DNA of 64,000 nucleotides from Dehalococcoidia bacterium (GTDB taxonomy: Bacteria > Chloroflexota > Dehalococcoidia > Lucifugimonadales > UBA2962), in NCBI GenBank assembly GCA_034421295.1, contig DAOUKM010000019.1:257611-321610 (forward strand). The letters run 5' to 3'. The translations under genes and the position numbers were made by a program. Shown in pieces: positions 761 to 25,606 of this stretch; position 1 is the stretch's first letter; each line of letters starts with the position of its first letter. A model generated the notes under the pieces. It had not been told where the DNA came from, made no database searches, and saw nothing but the letters and a program-made list of their open reading frames with translations.

Positions 761-2296
761 ATGAGGCCCATCCGGCTCGTTGCGTTCCTTGGAGTCCTGG
801 TGGGCGTATTCGCCGCGGCAGCCTGCTCAGGCGGCGACCCGCCCCCCGGAACAGGCACCGCCGCGTCAGAGTTCAGAGATGAGCCTGTCGCTTCGGACTC
901 TGGTTCGCAGGAGAAAGAGGCCGGACGCCTGATCACCAGGGCCATGCAGCTGCAGGCGGATCGGCAGTACGAGCCGACAGTCAGGATGCTCACCGAGGCG
1001 ATACGACTCGATCCGGAAAACCCCAACGCCTACTACTTCCGCGCCAATGCCCACCGGGCCCTGGGCCAGCTCGCAGAGGCCGTCGAGGACTACTCTCACG
1101 TGGTAGAGCTTGATCCTACCTACCTTGAGGCCTTCATTCGCAGGGCAGCGAGCCGCGGCACCCTGGGCGACCTTGAGGGTGCCGCGCTGGACTTTACGGC
1201 CGCGATAGAACTGGACCCGGCTAATGCGGATCATTATCGCAACCGGGCGCTGGCGCGCTATCGTCAGGGAAACATGGTGGAGGCCATCAAGGATCTGGAT
1301 GCGGCGATCGAACTCGCCCCGAGCATGGCAATGGCCTACAACGACAGGGGCCTGGCCTATGTCCAGACGGGAGACTTCCTGGGGGCCATAGACGAGTACA
1401 CCAAGGCGATCGAACTCGACCCGGGCATGGCGGTGGCGTACGTTAACCGGGGGACCGCCTATCAGGCCCTTACAAACTTCCAGTGGGCGGTAAACGACTT
1501 CGATCAGGCGATCAGGCTGAACCCGAATTTTTCGGCAAACTACAACAACCGTGGAAACGCCTACAGGGGTCTTAAGCGATACGAGGAAGCGCTGGCGGAC
1601 TATGGCCGGGCCATCGCGCTCGATCCGAATAGCTCGGTCGCCTTTTTCAACCGGGCGCTGACGTTTGAGATTCTGGAGCGCTTCGAGGAGGCAATCCGGG
1701 ATTTCGGGACGGCGATCAGGCTGGCCCCCGGCTTTACCGAAGCCTATTTTCGAAGGGCGGGCACCGTCGGCAACCTGGGTGATTTTGGGGCGGCGGTCGC
1801 CGATCTCGATGTCGCCATCAGGCTTGATCCGAATCACGCCGGAGCCTACAGGAGCCGGGCGGCCGCCCGATCCAGGCTAGGCAACGTGGAGGCGGCGGTC
1901 ACGGATCTGGACATCGCCATCAGGCTCGATCCGCGCGGGGTTGATGCCTATAACGACCGGGGAGCCATCCGATTGGAGCTGGGGGATCTAGATGGCGCCC
2001 TTGCCGACCTTGACCGGGCGATCTTGCTGGCACCGGACAATGCGACAGCATTTAGCAATCGGGCCGGGGTTCACATGGCCCTCGGTGACTATCAGGCTGC
2101 GATAGACGATCTGGGCCGGCTGGTTCAACTGAGCCCTGACGATCCCAACACTTACTCTCGTAGGGCGCAGGCGTATACACTTGCCGGTCAATTGGATCTT
2201 GCCCGTAAGGACCTTCAGACGCTCTCGGACCTGGGATTTGACACTACCCAGTTGGAGGAAGCACTCGAGTCTGAGCCGTCGGTCTCCGGCGGATGA
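761..2296 (+). CDS. TPR-repeat lipoprotein
   Basis: Signal peptide MRPIRLVAFLGVLVGVFAAAAC with lipobox Cys; about 13 consecutive 34-aa TPR units (recurring A..Y.NRA.AY..LG....A..D...AI.LDP). Confidence 0.8.
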   Translation: MRPIRLVAFLGVLVGVFAAAACSGGDPPPGTGTAASEFRDEPVASDSGSQEKEAGRLITRAMQLQADRQYEPTVRMLTEAIRLDPENPNAYYFRANAHRALGQLAEAVEDYSHVVELDPTYLEAFIRRAASRGTLGDLEGAALDFTAAIELDPANADHYRNRALARYRQGNMVEAIKDLDAAIELAPSMAMAYNDRGLAYVQTGDFLGAIDEYTKAIELDPGMAVAYVNRGTAYQALTNFQWAVNDFDQAIRLNPNFSANYNNRGNAYRGLKRYEEALADYGRAIALDPNSSVAFFNRALTFEILERFEEAIRDFGTAIRLAPGFTEAYFRRAGTVGNLGDFGAAVADLDVAIRLDPNHAGAYRSRAAARSRLGNVEAAVTDLDIAIRLDPRGVDAYNDRGAIRLELGDLDGALADLDRAILLAPDNATAFSNRAGVHMALGDYQAAIDDLGRLVQLSPDDPNTYSRRAQAYTLAGQLDLARKDLQTLSDLGFDTTQLEEALESEPSVSGG

Positions 2297-2319
2297 ACAC
2301 CCGTTTTGAGGAGGCACTA

Positions 2320-3063
2320 ATGAACAGATTGAGAGTCGCAGCCGCGCTTTCCGCCGTCCTGCTTGTCGCCCTCATGGGGGCGGCGTGTTCCAGCGGATCG
2401 GAAGAGGCGGCTTCGACCGACGAGGTGGTGGAACCTGAGACGGTGGCCGAAGGCTCAGACGATGTGGACGAGTCAGGCGCGGACGGTGGCGTGGTCCGGA
2501 TCGGAGATACCGGCGAGGGTTACCAGTGGATAAACCACGAACTGTTCGGGCTGATAGCGGAGGGCGCTTACGGTCTCTCGGTGGAGATCGTGCCGATCGC
2601 ACCGGATGACCTGCAGCAGGCGCTGACTTCGGGGGAGGTGGATGTCCACCTGGAGGCTCGAACTCCGGAGACGGTGGAGTGGTTTGATGCCGCCGTGGAC
2701 GATGGATCAATCGTAAACCTGGGCACGACATACGAAGCAGAAGAGGGCTTTGAGGTTCAGAAGGGAGCCACCCCGGAGTTTGTTGCCGAGCATGCTGAAG
2801 TCGCCGCCATGCTGGAGAAGATGGACACCAGGGCCGGATCCCTGGCCAAGACGGAAAAGTGGGCGTCGAGACGAGACGGTCTGACCAATCAGGAGGTGGC
2901 GGCCTACTACATGTACACCTTCGATTTTGAGGACCGCATGAAGTCGTGGATGCCGTTTGAGAAGTACAGGACCGCAAAGCTCCACATGGAGACGCTGTAC
3001 CCGGAGTTCAGGCGCTGCACCAACTGTCCGGATCCGGATCCGGACGCGCCGGGTACCCGATGA
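2320..3063 (+). CDS. Secreted lipoprotein, possible OpuAC/ProX-like (glycine-betaine type) substrate-binding fold
   Basis: Track ORF 2293..3063; start moved to ATG 2320 because GAGGAGG (2308-2314) lies 5 nt upstream. Signal peptide MNRLRVAAALSAVLLVALMGAAC. Pattern VVRIGDTGEGYQW..L....YGLSVEIVP......QAL.SGEVDVHLE resembles SBP lobe 1. Function call is weak. Confidence 0.55.
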   Translation: MNRLRVAAALSAVLLVALMGAACSSGSEEAASTDEVVEPETVAEGSDDVDESGADGGVVRIGDTGEGYQWINHELFGLIAEGAYGLSVEIVPIAPDDLQQALTSGEVDVHLEARTPETVEWFDAAVDDGSIVNLGTTYEAEEGFEVQKGATPEFVAEHAEVAAMLEKMDTRAGSLAKTEKWASRRDGLTNQEVAAYYMYTFDFEDRMKSWMPFEKYRTAKLHMETLYPEFRRCTNCPDPDPDAPGTR

Positions 3064-4115
3064 TGTTCGGCCCCACCGGGCAGGTCCAGACGGTACTGGG
3101 CCCGGTGGAACCTTCGACGCTGGGAGTAACCCACACTCACGAGCATCTGCTCTGCGATCAGGTCTGCTACTTCGCGCCGCCTGAAGAGGCCAGCGAGCGC
3201 ATCTGGATAGATGCGGCGTTCACCATGGATCGTCGCGGAGCGGCGCTGTCCAGATTCCCCTACTTCCCCGACAACTACGAGCTTCTAGATGAGAGGGCTG
3301 CCATCAAGGAGGCGATGCGCTTCAGGCATGCGGGCGGCGGCACTCTGGTGGACGTTACCAGCCGCGGCATCGCCAGGGACCCGTTGGCCCTTGCCCGCAT
3401 CTCAAGGGCGACCGGGCTGAACGTGGTGATGGGTGGAGGCTACTACATCCCCCCGTCTTATCCTCTCGGTTTTGACGACGTGACGGAGGACGAAGTCTGC
3501 GAAGGGATTGTTGGCGACATACTGGATGGAGTTGGTCAGACTGGGGTCAGGTCCGGTGTGATCGGCGAACTTGGAAACCTGTGGCCTCCTTCCGATAACG
3601 AGACGAAAGTGTTGCGAGCAGCAGCCCGAGCCCAGGTCCGGACGGGAGCGCCCATCCTCATCCACCCGGGGTTCCATGCAAGTTCCCCGGCACACATCGT
3701 GGGTGTGCTGCTCGATGCGGGTGCCGATCCATCTGGTGTGATCGTTGGCCACCTGGATTTCATACAGTCGATCGAGACCATCGAGTGGCTGGCGGGCACC
3801 GGGTGCTTCATGGAGTGGGACATATTCGGATTCGAGGACTCGAACCTGGCCGCCGGTGCCCCTCCGCCCATCGTGGTACCCACCGACGCTCAACGCATCG
3901 AACGAATTGAGCGCGTGTTTGAACTCGACGGGGGCGACAGGGTGCTTGTGGGACACGATGTCTGCATGAAGTTTCACTACGCTGCCTATGGTGGCAAGTC
4001 CTACGATCACATCCTGTCCAACATAGTGCCGCGTATGAGACGGCGGGGCTTTTCAGAGCAAGATGTCCAGGCCATTCTGGTAGACAATCCGGCGCGTGCC
4101 CTGACCTTCTCATAG
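3060..4115 (+). CDS. Phosphotriesterase-homology protein (Php/PTER family, amidohydrolase fold), paralog 1
   Basis: Metal-ligand motifs in order: LGVTHTHEHLL (HxH), GVIGELGN (Glu at the bridging-ligand position as in E. coli Php), ILIHPG, VIVGHLD, LVGHDVC. ATGA start/stop overlap with the upstream gene. Confidence 0.85.
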   Translation: MMFGPTGQVQTVLGPVEPSTLGVTHTHEHLLCDQVCYFAPPEEASERIWIDAAFTMDRRGAALSRFPYFPDNYELLDERAAIKEAMRFRHAGGGTLVDVTSRGIARDPLALARISRATGLNVVMGGGYYIPPSYPLGFDDVTEDEVCEGIVGDILDGVGQTGVRSGVIGELGNLWPPSDNETKVLRAAARAQVRTGAPILIHPGFHASSPAHIVGVLLDAGADPSGVIVGHLDFIQSIETIEWLAGTGCFMEWDIFGFEDSNLAAGAPPPIVVPTDAQRIERIERVFELDGGDRVLVGHDVCMKFHYAAYGGKSYDHILSNIVPRMRRRGFSEQDVQAILVDNPARALTFS

Positions 4116-4247
4116 TGCAATCGGCAACGGCCGCTCGCATTGTTACGCCGGTCCCCTCCCCGCCCGCGAGGAGATGGCCCGCGCGGCCGATTCGACGCCT
4201 GCCCAGTACGCCCTGAGCCAGATGCCTGCGGCGTGTAGGCTTCCGGT

Positions 4248-4268
4248 CGATAAAATAGGCGGTCTATG
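4248..4268 (+). promoter_or_regulatory. Candidate -10 box (TAAAAT 4251-4256) giving a leaderless or near-leaderless transcript for the 1550-aa gene
   Basis: CGATAAAATAG at 4248-4258, ATG at 4266, only 9 nt after the hexamer, no Shine-Dalgarno. The same 11-mer recurs at 26618-26628 upstream of the SLC13 gene. Confidence 0.35.
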
Positions 4269-7200
4269 GGTCCAGAGGCGGTCGCGGACGCACATAAGGT
4301 AGAGGGGCGGCCGTCGCGCATGCGGCGGCGGTGGGTCCGAATAGCGGCGCTCCTGCTGGTCGTCGGACTGGCTCTGGCTCTGCGCATGTACGGTCTGGAT
4401 TGGGACCGTGAGATGCCCTTTACCCCCCACCCGGACGAGCGGGCCATCCTCTTCAGCGTTGCCGAGATTTCGCCTCCGGCCCTCCACGACCTGGGTTCCC
4501 TCTTGGACGCCGACGAGAGCAGCTGGAACCCGAGGTGGTTTCCCTACGGCTCCTTACCCCTGTACCTGCTCAGGGGTGTGCAGTTGGTCTCGGAGGCGGT
4601 CGGTAAGGACATAGTCGACCTCAGGGTGACCGGCCGGGCGATCTCGGGAATAGCCGACGTGGTAACCGTGCTTACCGTCTACCTGCTCGGATCCCGGCTG
4701 TACGGTCGGCGCGTCGGGATACTTGCGGCTGGACTGTTATCCGTGGCCGTGCTGCACATCCAGCTCAGCCACTTTTTTGCCGTCGACACACTGCAGGCGA
4801 TGTTCGCCGTCGTAGCCCTCCTCTTCCTGTACAGGGTGGCCCGCTACGGAGGGATGGGCAATTCGGCTCTCGCTGGGCTCTTTATCGGACTTGGATTGGC
4901 GACAAAGGCGAGCCAGCTGCCTATCTTCTTGGCCTTCGGAGTCGCACAGCTGATGTACCTGTTCGACCTGGCGGGGTCGAGCCGTAGCTCGAACGAGAGC
5001 TTCCGAACACGGCTGCTATCGGTCGCATTGTCATCGACCATTGGGCTGCTGGTTGCATTTGTCGCTTTCTTCGTGACCCAGCCGTATGCGCTGCTCGATT
5101 GGTCACGGTACAGGGCGGACTTTACCGAACAGTCGGAGATGGTCAGGCGAATCCGCGACTATCCATACACCCGGCAGTACGAGGACACCGTTCCCTACTG
5201 GTACTTCATCCGGCAGAACATCACTTGGGGCATGGGTGCGCCGCTGGGCATCCTCGCCTGGGGAGGGGCCCTTTTCGCAGCGGTGCGCGGCCTTGCCTTG
5301 CGGCCTGCGGTCGCCTATCTGGCACTCGGCCTGGTGCTCCCGGCGCTGATCTTGGTCTTTTTCAATTCCGCGGTCGCGGTCGCTGTTGCGGCCGCCATCG
5401 CCACGATCGCCCTGGTGTCGACGCTGCCGGTGCGCAGGGCGGACACGCGCGTCGGCGTACTGCTCTTGTCCTGGGTTGTTCCCTACTTCCTGATCACCGG
5501 TTCGTTCGAGGTCAAGTTCATGCGCTACATGATCCCGATCACGCCGGTGCTCGTGCTCTTCGGGTCATGGCTTGCCCTGTCCATCTGGCGGGAGGGATCG
5601 GGCAGGCTCCAGCGATTCAAAGGGGGTCGGTACCTGCGAGCAGGACGCTGGGTCATGATCGCCGCAGCCATCTTCCTGGTCGGCTCGACCGGCTTTTATG
5701 CGATTTCGTACATGTTCGTGTATTCCGGAACCCATACGGCCGTCAGGGCCTCGGAGTGGATAAATGCCAACGTCCGGCCGGTGAGCGTGGTGCTAAAGGA
5801 ACACTGGGAGGAGGGGCTGCCCGGACTACATTCCTACAGGGTGCGGGAACTGCCGATGTACGAACCGGACGGACAGGCCAAGCTCAAGGCGCTATCCGAG
5901 GAGCTGTCTGCGGCAGAGGCTCTGGTTTTCTACTCGAACAGGCTATACGGCACCCTGCCGAGGTTGCCCGAGCGATATCCGCTGAGCGCCGCCTACTATG
6001 ATCTCCTGTTCTCCGGAAGGCTGGGGTACGAGCTTGTGGAATACGAGGCTACCTACCCTTCGTTCCTCGGGGTCACCTTCGTGCACGACACCTTCAGACG
6101 GCCCGGGCTGCCGGAACCGGGACCGCTTGGAGAATTCCGGCCCTCTCCGATATCCCTTGACCTAGGTCACGCGGACGAGAGTTTCTCCGTCTACGATCAC
6201 CCAACGGTAATGGTGTTTCGCAACGAGGAGCGGTACGACGCGAACACCATCCGCAAGGTCATCTCTTCCGAGGTTTCCGCCAGGATCGCCCAGGCGACAA
6301 GGTCACGCGGCCCCGTTCTATCCCCGAGCGAGTTTGAGATCCAGCGAGAGGGCGGTACGTGGACCGATGTCTTCGCCATCGATCGGTGGACCTCGCGGGT
6401 TCCCATCCTTTCGTGGCTGCTGCTCGTCCAGGGCCTGGCCCTGCTGGCCCTTCCCCTGACCCTCTGGCTGATGCGGCCGCTGGCCGATCGTGGGTACATG
6501 TTCTCCAAGGCGATCGGCATCTTGCTTGTCGCAGTGCTGGTGTGGCTGCTGGCCAGTCTGCAGTGGGTCTCCTTCTCGCCGCGCGCCATAGCACTTGCGG
6601 CCTTACTACTCGCCGCCGCGTCGGTGATCGTGTTGATCTATCGGCGTGAGGACATCCTCGAGTTCTTGAGACGTAGATGGTCGGTCCTGGTCATAGGGGA
6701 GGTGGTCTTTCTCGCCGCGTTCTTTGCGTTCGTCGGGCTGCGCATGGCCAATCCCGACCTGTGGCACCCGTTCCGTGGTGGCGAGAAACCGATGGATCTC
6801 GCCTATCTGAATGCGGTCACGCGCTCGACGATCATGCCTCCCCTCGATCCGTGGTTTGCCGGAGGATTCATCAACTACTATTACTTCGGCCAGTTCATAA
6901 CGGGCACGCTGATAAAGGCCACCGGCATTGATGTGCGGGTGGCCTACAATTTGGCCGTACCTCTGTTTTTTGCGCTGACAGCTGGCGGCGCATTCAGCCT
7001 GGTCTTCAACCTGGCCCAGGCGTGCAGGGGAAGGTCAATACTCCGCCGCCCCGGTCACGGCGAGACCGAGCCCGGTTTCGCGTCGCCGGCAGGTGGCTCG
7101 GTCCTTCGTCGACTGTGGTCAGGTCGGCTGGGTGGCTCCCTGAAGCCCCATGACTTGGGACCGGTGTGGGCCGGGCTTACGGCCGTCGCTTTCGTTGCGG

Positions 7201-21413: not shown

Positions 21414-21463
21414 CGCCACCCCACTGCATATCGTGCAGTCGGCCGTGGCGGTGGTGATTTTCT
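21414..21463 (+). terminator. Rho-independent terminator candidate after citrate synthase
   Basis: Nested stem CGCCAC (21414-21419)/GTGGCG (21445-21450) enclosing ACTGCA-tatcg-TGCAGT, followed by GATTTTCT. Confidence 0.5.
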
Positions 21464-21477
21464 AGAGGGTTTCAGGC

Positions 21478-21491
21478 CATAATACCGTGTG
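21478..21491 (+). promoter_or_regulatory. -10 box CATAAT placed 5 nt before the GTG start (leaderless transcript candidate)
   Basis: CATAAT 21478-21483, GTG 21489, no Shine-Dalgarno in between. Confidence 0.35.
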
Positions 21492-22457
21492 GCCTCCAAA
21501 CCCACTCCGGTTGAAAACCCTCAGCACGGGGAGATTCGCTTTGCTCACCCGAGCGAGCAGGAATTTGCCTCGATACTGGACTTTTACGGCGTTAGATGGG
21601 AGTACGAGCCGAAATCGTTCCCCCTCAGGTGGGACGCCGAGAGGGTGGCAGAGATGTTCACCCCGGACTTCTACCTCCCTGACCTCGGCCTGTACCTGGA
21701 GCTGACCACCCTCAAGCAGAGCCTGGTCACCGAGAAGAATCGCAAGCTCAGGCGCATGCGGAAGCTGTACCCGGATGTGGCGGTCAAGCTCCTTTATCGG
21801 CGCGATTATCACCGGCTATTGGCCAAGTATGGGTTTGGCCCTCTTGCCACCGCGGATTTCGGCGGCGTGGACCGCGTGTTGTTCTCCGCCCGGGGCATAG
21901 CCGATAAGGTGCGCCAGCTGGGGCGAGAGATATCGGTCGATTACGAGGGTAAGGAGCCGGTGCTTGTGGGTGTCCAGCGAGGCATGGTGTGCTTCATGGC
22001 CGATTTGATAAGGCAAATCACCCTGCCGATAGAGCTGGACTTCATGTCGGTTTCATACTACGGATCGTCGGAGGAAGGCGTGAGGGTGGTAAAGGATCTG
22101 GACCTTGGACTTACCGGGCGGGACGTACTGTTGATCGAAGACATAGTCGACACCGGTATGACGCTGAATTACCTGCTCAATTACCTGAGGGTCAAAGAGC
22201 CGGCCACCTTAAGTGTGTGTACGCTCGTGGACAAGCGAATCAGGCGCATCGTCGATGTCGACATCCGCTACGTCGGATTCGAGGTAGGGGATGAATTTCT
22301 CGTCGGCTACGGTTTGGACCACATGGAAAAGTACCGCAACCTGCCATTCTTGGGGGTCCTGAGGCCCGGACAGGGGGATTCCGAAGACAAAAAAAGAGGC
22401 CCCAAGGAACCTTGCTCTCCGCTCACCTCGCCGGACGCCCCGCAGTTGCCCACTTGA
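21489..22457 (+). CDS. hpt: Hypoxanthine phosphoribosyltransferase with ~125-aa N-terminal extra domain and Pro/Ser-rich C-terminal tail
   Basis: C-terminal two-thirds: EPVLVGVQRGMVCFMADL, LLIEDIVDTGMTL (PRPP motif), FLVGYGLD..EKYRNLP = HPRT. Residues 1-~125 unrelated to HPRT. Confidence 0.8.
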   Translation: MASKPTPVENPQHGEIRFAHPSEQEFASILDFYGVRWEYEPKSFPLRWDAERVAEMFTPDFYLPDLGLYLELTTLKQSLVTEKNRKLRRMRKLYPDVAVKLLYRRDYHRLLAKYGFGPLATADFGGVDRVLFSARGIADKVRQLGREISVDYEGKEPVLVGVQRGMVCFMADLIRQITLPIELDFMSVSYYGSSEEGVRVVKDLDLGLTGRDVLLIEDIVDTGMTLNYLLNYLRVKEPATLSVCTLVDKRIRRIVDVDIRYVGFEVGDEFLVGYGLDHMEKYRNLPFLGVLRPGQGDSEDKKRGPKEPCSPLTSPDAPQLPT

Positions 22458-22866: not shown

Positions 22867-23418
22867 ATGGAAGCTGCGTTCTTAGTTTTGATCGGGGGTG
22901 CACTCTTTGCACAGTCCTGGAACCACCTAGGCCTGTTTTCCGAAGGGCGCTCGATGGGAGTGGTAGTGGCTGGGCTTGGCCTGCTGTCATTGGTTGGCCT
23001 TGTGATGACGCCGATGCTCCTGGAGGGAAGGTCCACCGAGGCAGATGTCCTGACGAACATCACGATGATGAAGGCGCTGATCCTGGTCTGGGCGGTATAC
23101 GCGGTGGCCGTGGCGGCTCAGGCCTACCTGGATCTGGAGGAACGTGCGGTCGGCTTTTATGCGGGCTTCCTGTGCGTATTCAACGTTTTCGCGCTGATCT
23201 ACTTCGCGGCTGAGATGTCAAGTGGCTACGGCGACGGTCCATGGCTCACGATGTCAGCGGCCACACTGATTCTGGCGATCAACGCGGGTCTGGTTTTCTT
23301 CCACCAGGCCATCCCCTTCCAGGCGATCAGGCTTGTGACCGGGTGGTTCCTGCTGATCGGCGGCGCAGCCGTGGCCGTGCTGGGCGCGCTGGTCGCGACG
23401 TCGGTGATACAGATCTAG
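22867..23418 (+). CDS. Six-TM small membrane protein, possibly AmiS/UreI-type amide/urea channel
   Basis: 183 aa; RBS AGGAGG 5 nt upstream; size, TM layout and several segments resemble UreI/AmiS proteins recalled from memory; not verified. Confidence 0.5.
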   Translation: MEAAFLVLIGGALFAQSWNHLGLFSEGRSMGVVVAGLGLLSLVGLVMTPMLLEGRSTEADVLTNITMMKALILVWAVYAVAVAAQAYLDLEERAVGFYAGFLCVFNVFALIYFAAEMSSGYGDGPWLTMSAATLILAINAGLVFFHQAIPFQAIRLVTGWFLLIGGAAVAVLGALVATSVIQI

Positions 23419-23524: not shown

Positions 23525-25606
23525 ATGGTTGATTCCCTTACAGAGGAGACGACAGGCACGGCGGACCCTCGAATCGTAGGTTCAGATGAATCTGGGGCTG
23601 GGCACCCGACCAGCCGGAGCCAAAGAATCTCCGTTGCGCAGATCCTGGCTGAAAGCGAACGGGAAACGGACAGGTACTCTTGGGAGGGGACCTTCGCTCA
23701 GTACCTGGAGAAGGTAATCGCGACGCCGGCGCTGTCGCGACTGTCCCATGGTCTCGTCTATGACGCCATAGGTTCTGCAGGAGCTGAAGAGGACCTCAAC
23801 GGAGAGCCTGTCTACGGGCTATTTGACGGGCAGATCTTTGGTCTGGAGTCGGCCCTGGATCGAATCGTTGGCTATTTCGAGGCTTCGGCCCGGCGCCTGG
23901 AGGTCAGGAAACGAATTCTGCTCCTGCTGGGCCCGCCGGCCAGTGGAAAATCGTCGATTATAGACATCATCAAGCGTGGTCTTGAGGATTACACCAAGAC
24001 TCAGGATGGGGCGGTCTACACCATCCAGGGTTGTCCAATGCAGGAGGACCCCCTGCACTTGATCCCAAGCGGGCTAAGGGCCAGGCTAGCCGGGGATCAC
24101 GGCCTGTACATTGAGGGCGACCTTTGCTTCCATTGCCGATTCCTCCTGGAGCGCGATTACAGGGGCAATCCCGCGGAGGTGCCCGTGACCCGGATCGTGT
24201 TCTCCGAGTCCCAGGCCAGGGGTATCGGCTACTACGTTGCCAACAATCCAAGGCCGCCCGACCCGTCCGTTCTGGTGGGCAGCTACAACGAGAAGAAGCT
24301 CGACGGAGAACGCCAGGAGGTCGCCGCCCGCGCCTTCCGGCTGGACGGTGAACTGAACGTTGCCAACCGGGGCATCATGGACTTTGTCGAGATCTTCAAG
24401 GCTGACCGCAGGTTGCTGACCACGCTGCTGTCGCTGGCGCAAGAGCAACTCATCAAGATGGAAAAGTTCGGATCCGTCTACGGAGACGAGGTGATCATAG
24501 GGCACTCCAACGAGGGCGATTTCAATACGTTCAGTCAGGACGAGTCCTCAGAGGCGCTGAAAGACCGGATCATAGCCATCAAGATCCCCTACAACCTGCG
24601 GGTTTCAGAAGAGGTCAAAATCCTCAACAAGATGCTCGGACAGAGCACCGTGCAGGATGTGGACATCGCACCGCTGACCATGCAGGTGGTCAGCACTTTC
24701 GCCATCCTGTCTCGGCTTGAGGCTCCCTCGCGACAGGGTATGAGCCTGTTGGACAAGGTCAAGCTCTATAACGGCGAGCTCGTCGGTTCATACACCCATC
24801 GTGACGTAGTTGAAATGCAGCGCCACCACCCCAATGAGGGCATGGGGGGCATATCCCCCCGCTATGTGATGAACCGCATAGGGGTGGTGGCCAGCGCAGA
24901 ATCCGGAGTCGTGACGCCCCTGGCGGCCATAGACAGCCTGTGGCGGGGGCTCAAAGAGAACATCAGCCTGGATCAGGCCGACATCGTCACTTACGTGGGC
25001 TTCATCGCCGACACCGTCAAGGAGTACGACCGGCTCGCCGTGAAGGAGCTGCAGATGGCGCTGACCGACTCGTTTGACGACAGCGCCAACGAACTCTTCG
25101 AGAACTACGTCACCAGCATAGCCGACTTCTGCCAGTCAAATGGTAAATCGGGAGTTAGAACCCGTTCGCCCAACGAGCGGGATATGCAGGAACTGGAGAG
25201 GGCCGTGGGTGTGATGGCGCGGGATAAGCGCGCCTTTCGACAGGAGCTTCACGATCGAATCAGCGGGTGGAAGCTGAAGGGCAAATCGTTTGATTACCGC
25301 TCGGAGCCACGCTTGCGGACGGCTGTGGAGCTGAGGTTGCTACCCGCGCCCCGGGCCGTGGAGCGAGCGTTGACCGAACCTCGCTTCGCCCGCCAGAAGG
25401 TGGAGTGGCGCAGACGCTATGAAGCCGTGATCAGTCACCTTGTAGACTCCTTCGGCTACTCCCACGCCACGGCCGAGGATCTGATCGCCTACGGGATGCA
25501 TGTAATCAAGAGGCGCCCCGTGATCAAGACGCCCCGCAACGAGGGAGTCGAATGGCTCTGGCCCCTTTACCCTGATTCACCCGTTGGGGGTAGCGGTTCC
25601 GCCTAG
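23525..25606 (+). CDS. prkA: PrkA-family AAA+ serine protein kinase
   Basis: 693 aa; Walker A LLLGPPASGKSS; long collinear PrkA pattern (GIMDFVEIFK, IIGHSNE, ALKDRI..IKIPYNL). Confidence 0.9.
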   Translation: MVDSLTEETTGTADPRIVGSDESGAGHPTSRSQRISVAQILAESERETDRYSWEGTFAQYLEKVIATPALSRLSHGLVYDAIGSAGAEEDLNGEPVYGLFDGQIFGLESALDRIVGYFEASARRLEVRKRILLLLGPPASGKSSIIDIIKRGLEDYTKTQDGAVYTIQGCPMQEDPLHLIPSGLRARLAGDHGLYIEGDLCFHCRFLLERDYRGNPAEVPVTRIVFSESQARGIGYYVANNPRPPDPSVLVGSYNEKKLDGERQEVAARAFRLDGELNVANRGIMDFVEIFKADRRLLTTLLSLAQEQLIKMEKFGSVYGDEVIIGHSNEGDFNTFSQDESSEALKDRIIAIKIPYNLRVSEEVKILNKMLGQSTVQDVDIAPLTMQVVSTFAILSRLEAPSRQGMSLLDKVKLYNGELVGSYTHRDVVEMQRHHPNEGMGGISPRYVMNRIGVVASAESGVVTPLAAIDSLWRGLKENISLDQADIVTYVGFIADTVKEYDRLAVKELQMALTDSFDDSANELFENYVTSIADFCQSNGKSGVRTRSPNERDMQELERAVGVMARDKRAFRQELHDRISGWKLKGKSFDYRSEPRLRTAVELRLLPAPRAVERALTEPRFARQKVEWRRRYEAVISHLVDSFGYSHATAEDLIAYGMHVIKRRPVIKTPRNEGVEWLWPLYPDSPVGGSGSA

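Follow-up and report, generated by a model that had tools for sequence, protein, structure and literature searches.

A predicted endonuclease I-like domain joined to hypoxanthine phosphoribosyltransferase in a Dehalococcoidia bacterium and its relatives

In a 64,000-nt stretch of contig DAOUKM010000019.1 from a Dehalococcoidia bacterium (assembly GCA_034421295.1; hereafter, the window), the open reading frame (ORF) at positions 21489–22457 of the + strand encodes a 322-aa protein, with a GTG start and a TGA stop, that consists of an endonuclease I-like domain, a hypoxanthine phosphoribosyltransferase (HPRT; gene hpt) and a disordered tail; an identical protein (P0001) exists. Sequence comparison reveals clear, though distant, homology of the N-terminal domain (N-domain) to phage endonuclease I (the Holliday-junction resolvase gp3 of T7) and identifies it as a cellular offshoot of that family. 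As judged from the alignments, it belongs to a new endonuclease I-fold subfamily whose active site is rebuilt and which has been recruited as a constant partner of HPRT. We propose that this partner is a metal-binding module acting on nucleic acid in connection with purine salvage, a reading that is possible and just short of probable.

The two domains of the window protein

The initial annotation had set the first ~125 residues of the protein apart from HPRT and had pointed to a PD-(D/E)xK-like pattern within them. Indeed, residues 1–126 match no HPRT, and the pattern turned out to be well beyond chance, with PF05367, PDB, PHROG and hhalign comparisons narrowing it to the endonuclease I family. 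The domain core spans residues 17–113 (21537–21827, +) and is followed by a linker at residues 114–126 (21828–21866, +), the AlphaFold per-residue confidence (pLDDT) falling below 50 at residues 113–123. Against the Pfam model PF05367 (Phage_endo_I), the window protein scored 19.3 bits (E 9e-4), under the gathering cutoff of 29.1, and 13 of 74 relatives matched the model on their own at E < 0.01; such sub-threshold scores argue for a distinct subfamily lying outside the curated model. The single N-domain sequence reached four solved T7-type endonuclease I sequences in the PDB at E 1.5e-3 to 1.4e-2, and the profile of the 74-sequence family reached the endonuclease I entry 3cae at E 3.8e-5. PHROG families described as 'endonuclease' and 'Holliday junction resolvase' were matched at 1.6e-7 and 2.4e-6, respectively, while tblastn retrieved phage genes annotated 'endonuclease I' or 'Holliday junction resolvase' with 30–34% identity (E 3e-4 to 6e-3). 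Profile-profile comparison by hhalign with three phage endonuclease I proteins, one of them a strong PF05367 member (E 2.6e-34), yielded a probability of 98% and E 1.6e-13. A scan of IMG/VR viral contigs found no close relatives of the domain.

The AlphaFold model of the domain places helix 21–32, strands 44–49, 52–57, 61–63 and 68–72, helix 77–93, strand 98–102 and helix 104–113 in succession, with pLDDT of 76–96 in the core, and this predicted order fits the PD-(D/E)xK/endonuclease I layout. The motifs that had first drawn attention, FTPDF to TTLKQ, do lie at residues 57–77 (21657–21719) and hold D60 in a P-D-F motif (21666–21668, +) and the remodelled ExK motif E71-L-T-T-L-K76 (21699–21716, +); E23 (21555–21557, +) precedes them. 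Each of E23, D60 and E71 is invariant, and they align with Glu20, Asp55 and Glu65 of the T7 enzyme, the ExK lysine of which is K67. This lysine aligns to T73 when HMMER or hhalign is used, or to K76 through a three-residue insertion when the alignment is made with MAFFT. The earlier remark that the ExK lysine is displaced was therefore accurate, E71-L72-T73 having no lysine and K76 lying three residues further on; the K76 position is occupied by K in 80% and by R in 16% of the sequences, the remainder being Q, N or S.

Conservation of the N-domain is pronounced. A set of 149 sequences shows no variation at E23, E40, D60, E71, T74, K83 or K86; all of these except E23 are likewise invariant in the 74 sequences of alignment A1, and E23, E40, D60, E71, T73, K83 and K86 are so in 144 diverse cluster representatives. 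Overall, ~16 polar residues within ~100 aa are invariant or nearly so, including H20, T73, T74, Q77 and N84, which are conserved here and not common to the phage enzymes. The basic face of helix 77–93 (21735–21761, +) carries invariant or nearly invariant K83, N84 and K86 along with nearly invariant R88 and R91, and these basic residues are candidate contacts to phosphate or nucleic acid or, for one of the lysines, a candidate relocated catalytic residue. Among 122 fused proteins, mean pairwise identity is 78% in the N-domain versus 68% in the HPRT domain, the former being the more conserved of the two in 98% of pairs. Together, these patterns point to an active site that is rebuilt, not decayed, with E-L-T-T-x-K/R-Q in place of ExK.

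The C-terminal half of the protein is, by every computational test, a complete HPRT with intact catalytic residues and is predicted to be a working enzyme; the initial annotation had called the part from about residue 127 onward a normal HPRT. The domain covers residues 127–292 (21867–22364, +). Its residues 130–291 matched the HGPRTase equivalog TIGR01203 with 178.5 bits, above the cutoff of 150, over model positions 1–166 of 167, and residues 135–277 matched Pfam PF00156. The segment also matched PDB 1r3u at E 3e-50, and a Foldseek search with the full AlphaFold model returned HPRT structures only, with 2geb at rank 1 (E 6.5e-25), with identity of up to 48% and, for chains of 1r3u, 1yfz and 3o7m, with target TM values of 0.89–0.94 and root-mean-square deviations of 1.1–1.8 Å. 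The motif VLLIEDIVDTGMT at residues 213–225 (22125–22163, +) is that for binding of phosphoribosyl pyrophosphate (PRPP). Residues E217, D218, K249, F270, D277 and R283, associated with PRPP, metal and purine, are invariant in the 122 fused homologues, and D221 is retained in 121 of them. The Pro/Ser/Lys-rich tail reported initially is present at residues 293–322 (22365–22454, +) and is predicted to be disordered on account of its low pLDDT; it is nevertheless lineage-specific and has no conserved role, the tail length having a median of 5 aa among the 122 homologues compared with 30 residues here.

Gene architectures, genomic neighbourhood and upstream region

Thousands of proteins of 290–350 aa span the full query, and the window is closest to an uncultured Dehalococcoidia metagenome-assembled genome (MAG), with 98% identity over the N-domain. 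Of 84 related loci, drawn from independent assemblies that include complete Dehalococcoidia chromosomes, 79 encode both parts in a single ORF; at two of the apparent exceptions, the low-coverage assembly is frameshifted. The suspicion that two genes had been joined by a missing stop in this assembly thus has hardly any probability left: some database entries are visibly frameshifted (P0003, P0121, L029 and L089), as such an artefact would lead one to expect, but the same uninterrupted ORF at those 79 loci rules it out and the fusion is genuine. The four entries just named are frameshifted or truncated copies from low-coverage or long-read data, which mimic stand-alone N-domain proteins in listings.

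The N-domain family comprises 3158 cluster representatives at E ≤ 1e-3, and hpt was found near the N-domain in every arrangement where the contig extends far enough. In Chloroflexota the two parts are fused. In Armatimonadota and a related lineage, the N-domain constitutes a protein of 114–120 aa whose gene shares 1 or 4 nt with the HPRT gene behind it, the two being translationally coupled neighbours in Armatimonadota. Acidobacteria, NC10 and Limnocylindrales have the N-domain after a PF13189 'cytidylate kinase-like' domain, and hpt (TIGR01203) is the next gene, 220–330 nt downstream; this succession of a kinase-like + N-domain gene and an hpt equivalog held in all four lineages examined. The P-loop of the PF13189 domain reads GSGG, is devoid of lysine and is accordingly degenerate, and the architecture accounts for 26 of the 144 cluster representatives. 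The initial annotation had reckoned with the two parts being encoded separately elsewhere, and in other phyla they are, but as adjacent and often overlapping genes, which argues for a functional pair and not for an assembly artefact. Rfam detected no riboswitch or other known RNA in the spacers that separate hpt from the N-domain gene in other phyla, and apart from a hairpin at L093 and L099, two related loci, no common motif emerged from an alignment of these spacers across phyla. Labels of the type 'cytidylate kinase family' hide proteins composed of PF13189 and the endonuclease I-like domain at L096 (4001–5857), L098 (2378–4104), L099 (4001–5797) and L093.

Two further architectures occur within Dehalococcoidia. 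One lineage, with MAGs mostly labelled Dehalococcoidales, has proteins of ~485 aa with a GAF domain ahead of the N-domain and HPRT, and another places ~300 aa of Arg-rich repeats before the two domains. These low-complexity tandem repeats (e.g., EEPQRAPxRRRGRRSPGIAAA) were observed in L074 and L077 (~3080–4000), L057 and L060; the extension is probably translated, since L074 and L077 have the common start MVQ(D/N)PQQ.

The neighbourhood of the gene in relatives is largely that of nucleotide metabolism. The GAF-type gene comes directly after nrdR and the gene for a class II ribonucleotide reductase (nrdJ) at no fewer than 29 of 80 loci, and carB is upstream of the gene in 11 loci; other neighbours encode a Bmp-type nucleoside ABC transporter, or a purine nucleoside phosphorylase together with a cytidine deaminase. 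In L031, L036, L084 and ~26 more loci (e.g., L036, 165–4668), nrdR, the class II reductase gene (with a TSCPD domain) and the gene for GAF, N-domain and HPRT are co-directional, with intergenic gaps of ~35 nt or less. In the split-gene lineages (L001, 3690–4850; L086, 3674–4849), a gene for a HEAT-repeat protein is divergent from the N-domain gene, and that for the nucleotidase SurE is a few genes away. The neighbours within the window (citrate synthase, a small membrane protein and PrkA) are uninformative. Downstream of the gene, the window encodes a multi-pass membrane protein of 183 aa for which no Pfam match is on record (22867–23418) and then a PrkA-type AAA serine kinase (23525–25606), an order of membrane protein and PrkA that is repeated on Logan contig L004.

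The start of the gene is well delimited. An in-frame TAA lies 9 nt 5′ of GTG 21489, which makes this codon the earliest start possible and rules out a longer version; any later start codon would cut away the conserved block from F18 on, which GTG 21489 alone retains. The gene had further been described as apparently leaderless. The hexamer CATAAT at 21478–21483 (+), a possible −10 box of a putative leaderless start, is located 5 nt before the GTG and is kept in the two closest genomes (L005 and L006), and no Shine-Dalgarno sequence was found at working distance (5–12 nt) from the GTG, the nearest GAGG being 20 nt upstream; GGAG or GAGG stands 6–11 nt upstream of many other genes in the window. 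A two-hexamer scan called no promoter 5′ of the GTG. Inspection of the upstream regions of 21 loci revealed GGAGG 6–8 nt before the start codon in other lineages. A leaderless start is plausible for the window's lineage only, and the description does not carry over to the other lineages, which have a normal Shine-Dalgarno sequence. A TGn-extended −10-like box (TGTGnTAnAAT) was noticed further upstream in about six lineages (L008, L009, L017, L018, L020 and L021), five of which also have GGAGG before an ATG or TTG start; unlike in these, the −10-like box of the window's lineage abuts the start codon.

No operator-like palindrome common to the loci was found in the upstream regions of these 21 loci. 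The window contains a perfect 6-bp inverted repeat (ACTGCA-tatcg-TGCAGT) at 21423–21439, ~50 nt 5′ of the GTG, which is kept in L005 and partly in L006 and may serve as an operator or fold into a small hairpin. An Rfam scan of the gene region found no riboswitch or other known RNA.

Candidate functions of the N-domain

We propose that the N-domain is a metal-binding module with affinity for nucleic acid, which it probably also cleaves, and that it is physically coupled to purine salvage. The domain would form the intertwined dimer typical of endonuclease I, hold a divalent metal through E23, D60 and E71, and bind, with probable cleavage, branched, single-stranded or damaged nucleic acid. The turnover or the state of nucleic acid might thereby be tied to purine salvage, with the neighbouring nucleotide-binding domains, HPRT included, either gating the nuclease activity or being gated by it. 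A parallel is provided by T7, whose endonuclease I initiates the degradation of host DNA, the products being recycled into nucleotides afterwards. The proposal is supported by the endonuclease I homology, the order of fold elements, the acidic triad, the stronger conservation of the N-domain relative to HPRT, the retained catalytic residues of HPRT, the linkage to hpt, the context of nucleotide metabolism and the accessory PC4-like and Arg-rich parts. In addition, a sensor-like domain, predicted to be either GAF or a degenerate nucleoside monophosphate kinase-like domain, is often placed in front of the module.

Several observations weigh against this proposal. The domain lacks the canonical catalytic lysine, for which K76 is the nearest substitute but is conserved as lysine in only the 80% of sequences given above. 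The suggestion to check the fold by profile and structure searches gave a divided answer, the profiles reaching endonuclease I but Foldseek with the isolated N-domain model finding nothing significant in the PDB (best E 0.07), so that fold membership rests on sequence profiles and on secondary-structure order. Among the weak, non-significant top hits of that search are many PD-(D/E)xK nucleases (R2 RLE, TT1808, AbaSI, PvuRts1I, I-Bth0305I, TnsA and Can2). T7 endonuclease I forms a domain-swapped dimer in crystals (PMC3424549), and this swapped form is beyond the reach of a monomer model in Foldseek. Furthermore, the steps of a nuclease and of HPRT are not consecutive, which leaves a 1:1 coupling without evident reason; an endonuclease I acting unchecked in the cytoplasm would be toxic; and the GAF and degenerate-kinase partners are just as consistent with a module for signalling or regulation. 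An ordinary stand-alone HPRT gene lies directly 3′ of the fused gene in L041 (4785–5435), L056 (5141–5737) and L074 (6272–6781), with products above the TIGR01203 cutoff in the former two and at 148.5 against the cutoff of 150 in L074, which hints at a specialised role for the fused copy. Finally, two of the accessory fusions are themselves shaky: that to a PC4-like domain is a faint Pfam match, and that to MerR is a single case, L094, from an error-prone long-read assembly whose fragmented genes make the fusion uncertain. This Actinobacteria-like contig carries, at 2149–7062, gcvH, a garA-like FHA gene, MerR, hpt, a BFN nuclease domain, the MerR + N-domain gene and gcvT.

The more specific view, that the N-domain is an obligate partner of HPRT in at least four phyla and serves as a nucleotide-gated nuclease or as a sensor of nucleic-acid state controlling purine salvage, is put forward tentatively and is rather doubtful.

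Among the alternatives, a one-component regulator of nucleotide metabolism, in which the nuclease-derived domain would bind DNA or RNA without cutting and HPRT, GAF and the kinase-like domain would be the sensors, has precedents for the phosphoribosyltransferase (PRT) fold in Bacillus subtilis PurR and PyrR and in haloarchaeal GfcR. Loss of the canonical ExK lysine speaks for such a role, as do the sensor-then-N-domain layout with both GAF and the PF13189 domain (with its GSGG P-loop), the position of the gene immediately 5′ of hpt with a 220–330 nt spacer in three phyla, and the stand-alone HPRT genes adjoining the fused gene in L041, L056 and L074. A pure binder, however, would normally let the acidic triad decay, yet it is 100% invariant, and the invariant or nearly invariant catalytic residues of HPRT indicate an enzyme and not a mere sensor. 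Moreover, no operator-like motif was found conserved upstream or in the spacers, and endonuclease I recognises DNA structure, not sequence. We consider a regulatory role, the main rival of our proposal, unlikely. An allosteric or oligomerisation domain, shaping the quaternary structure of HPRT through a swapped dimer or modulating its kinetics or inhibition (e.g., by (p)ppGpp) with no part played by nucleic acid, would account for the obligate 1:1 linkage through fusion or overlapping stop and start codons, and a tight interface would be in keeping with the very high conservation. It is quite improbable all the same, for it leaves unexplained the invariant acidic and basic residues common to phage nucleases, the interdomain linker is predicted to be flexible with uncertain relative placement of the domains (pTM 0.59), and a hairpin-containing spacer separates the kinase-like + N-domain gene from hpt.

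The ~16 invariant or nearly invariant polar residues, among them H20, T73, T74, Q77 and N84 that are absent from the phage enzymes, could also reflect a new phosphodiesterase or pyrophosphatase that acts on a metabolite of the purine pathway (pyrophosphate, (p)ppGpp or a cyclic nucleotide), its reaction adjoining that of HPRT; consecutive steps are usually what fusions link, and the accessory domains bind nucleotides. Such an enzyme is nonetheless decidedly improbable: we know of no PD-(D/E)xK enzyme that acts on small molecules, which counts against it, and the PC4-like and Arg-rich accessory segments point to nucleic acid. The sensor-then-nuclease layout is, in turn, like that of many anti-phage effectors, but a defence or toxin nuclease under nucleotide-sensing control is highly improbable, given that PADLOC returned no hit for the window protein and only short, weak ones (E > 5e-5) for relatives, that IMG/VR viral contigs hold no close relatives, that the extreme conservation looks vertical and that the gene is placed in housekeeping operons (nrdR-nrdJ and carB).

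Novelty and relation to known systems

A literature search for the fusion of the N-domain and HPRT retrieved no description of it. A 2012 survey of PD-(D/E)xK proteins lists Dehalococcoides and Thermomicrobium (Chloroflexi) members of PF05367, and the term 'phosphoribosyl' is absent from its main text (PMC3424549). PMC551604 deals with an unrelated family. The database labels of these proteins, where given, read HPRT, cytidylate kinase or hypothetical. The module has gone unremarked on a textbook enzyme despite thousands of database entries. A nuclease-fold domain that surpasses its partner enzyme in conservation and is linked to hpt by fusion, overlap and adjacency across phyla gives a strong signal, through guilt by association, of a function missing from the known picture of purine salvage or of its control, and the groups concerned, such as Dehalococcoidia, Acidobacteria and NC10, are abundant and mostly uncultured. 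If the view of an obligate partner is true, Chloroflexota, Armatimonadota, Acidobacteriota and NC10 would possess an additional, strongly conserved component of purine salvage that model bacteria lack. The module also exemplifies the uptake of a phage junction-resolvase fold, with a rebuilt active site, into core cellular metabolism, which bears on the evolution of PD-(D/E)xK enzymes.

Closest to the N-domain among known systems is T7 endonuclease I (gp3; PF05367; PDB 1fzr, 1m0d, 2pfj and 3cae), with ~90 homologous residues. The two have in common the motif set F..E...G..EYE...PDF.LP....E, the acidic triad, the order of secondary-structure elements and a basic helix after the catalytic strand. 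The N-domain differs in having E-L-T-T-x-K/R-Q for ExK and in its extra invariant H20, T73, T74, Q77 and N84. In contrast to the phage enzyme, its subfamily is cellular only, as judged from IMG/VR, scores under the Pfam gathering cutoff and is linked to hpt. With respect to ordinary bacterial HPRT/HGPRT (Thermoanaerobacter tengcongensis 1r3u, Bacillus anthracis 3h83 and Escherichia coli 1g9s), the C-terminal domain is a full member, with a flexible loop 3 residues shorter than that of 1r3u. Unlike those enzymes, the window protein adds a ~125-aa nuclease-fold domain at its N-terminus, to which its relatives add a further GAF domain or an Arg-rich extension.

PurR, PyrR and GfcR rely on winged-helix or helix-turn-helix domains, or else on their own PRT fold, and PurR lacks enzyme activity. 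As in these regulators, a nucleotide-binding PRT domain is joined here to a predicted nucleic-acid function in nucleotide metabolism; here, however, the partner is a predicted nuclease fold with an intact acidic site, and the PRT domain is an intact HPRT. In T7, host DNA is recycled by the gp3 endonuclease, the gp6 exonuclease and the gp1.7 nucleotide kinase, which are separate phage proteins acting during infection. The kinase-like + N-domain architecture echoes this pairing of nuclease and kinase, but the module described here is chromosomal, conserved and built around HPRT, and its kinase-like domain has no P-loop lysine. Lastly, some Firmicutes possess bifunctional TilS-HprT proteins, in which HPRT is fused to a tRNA-acting PP-loop ATPase and the logic of the fusion is also unexplained. 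They represent another fusion of HPRT with a domain acting on nucleic acid, although their partner is unrelated to the N-domain.

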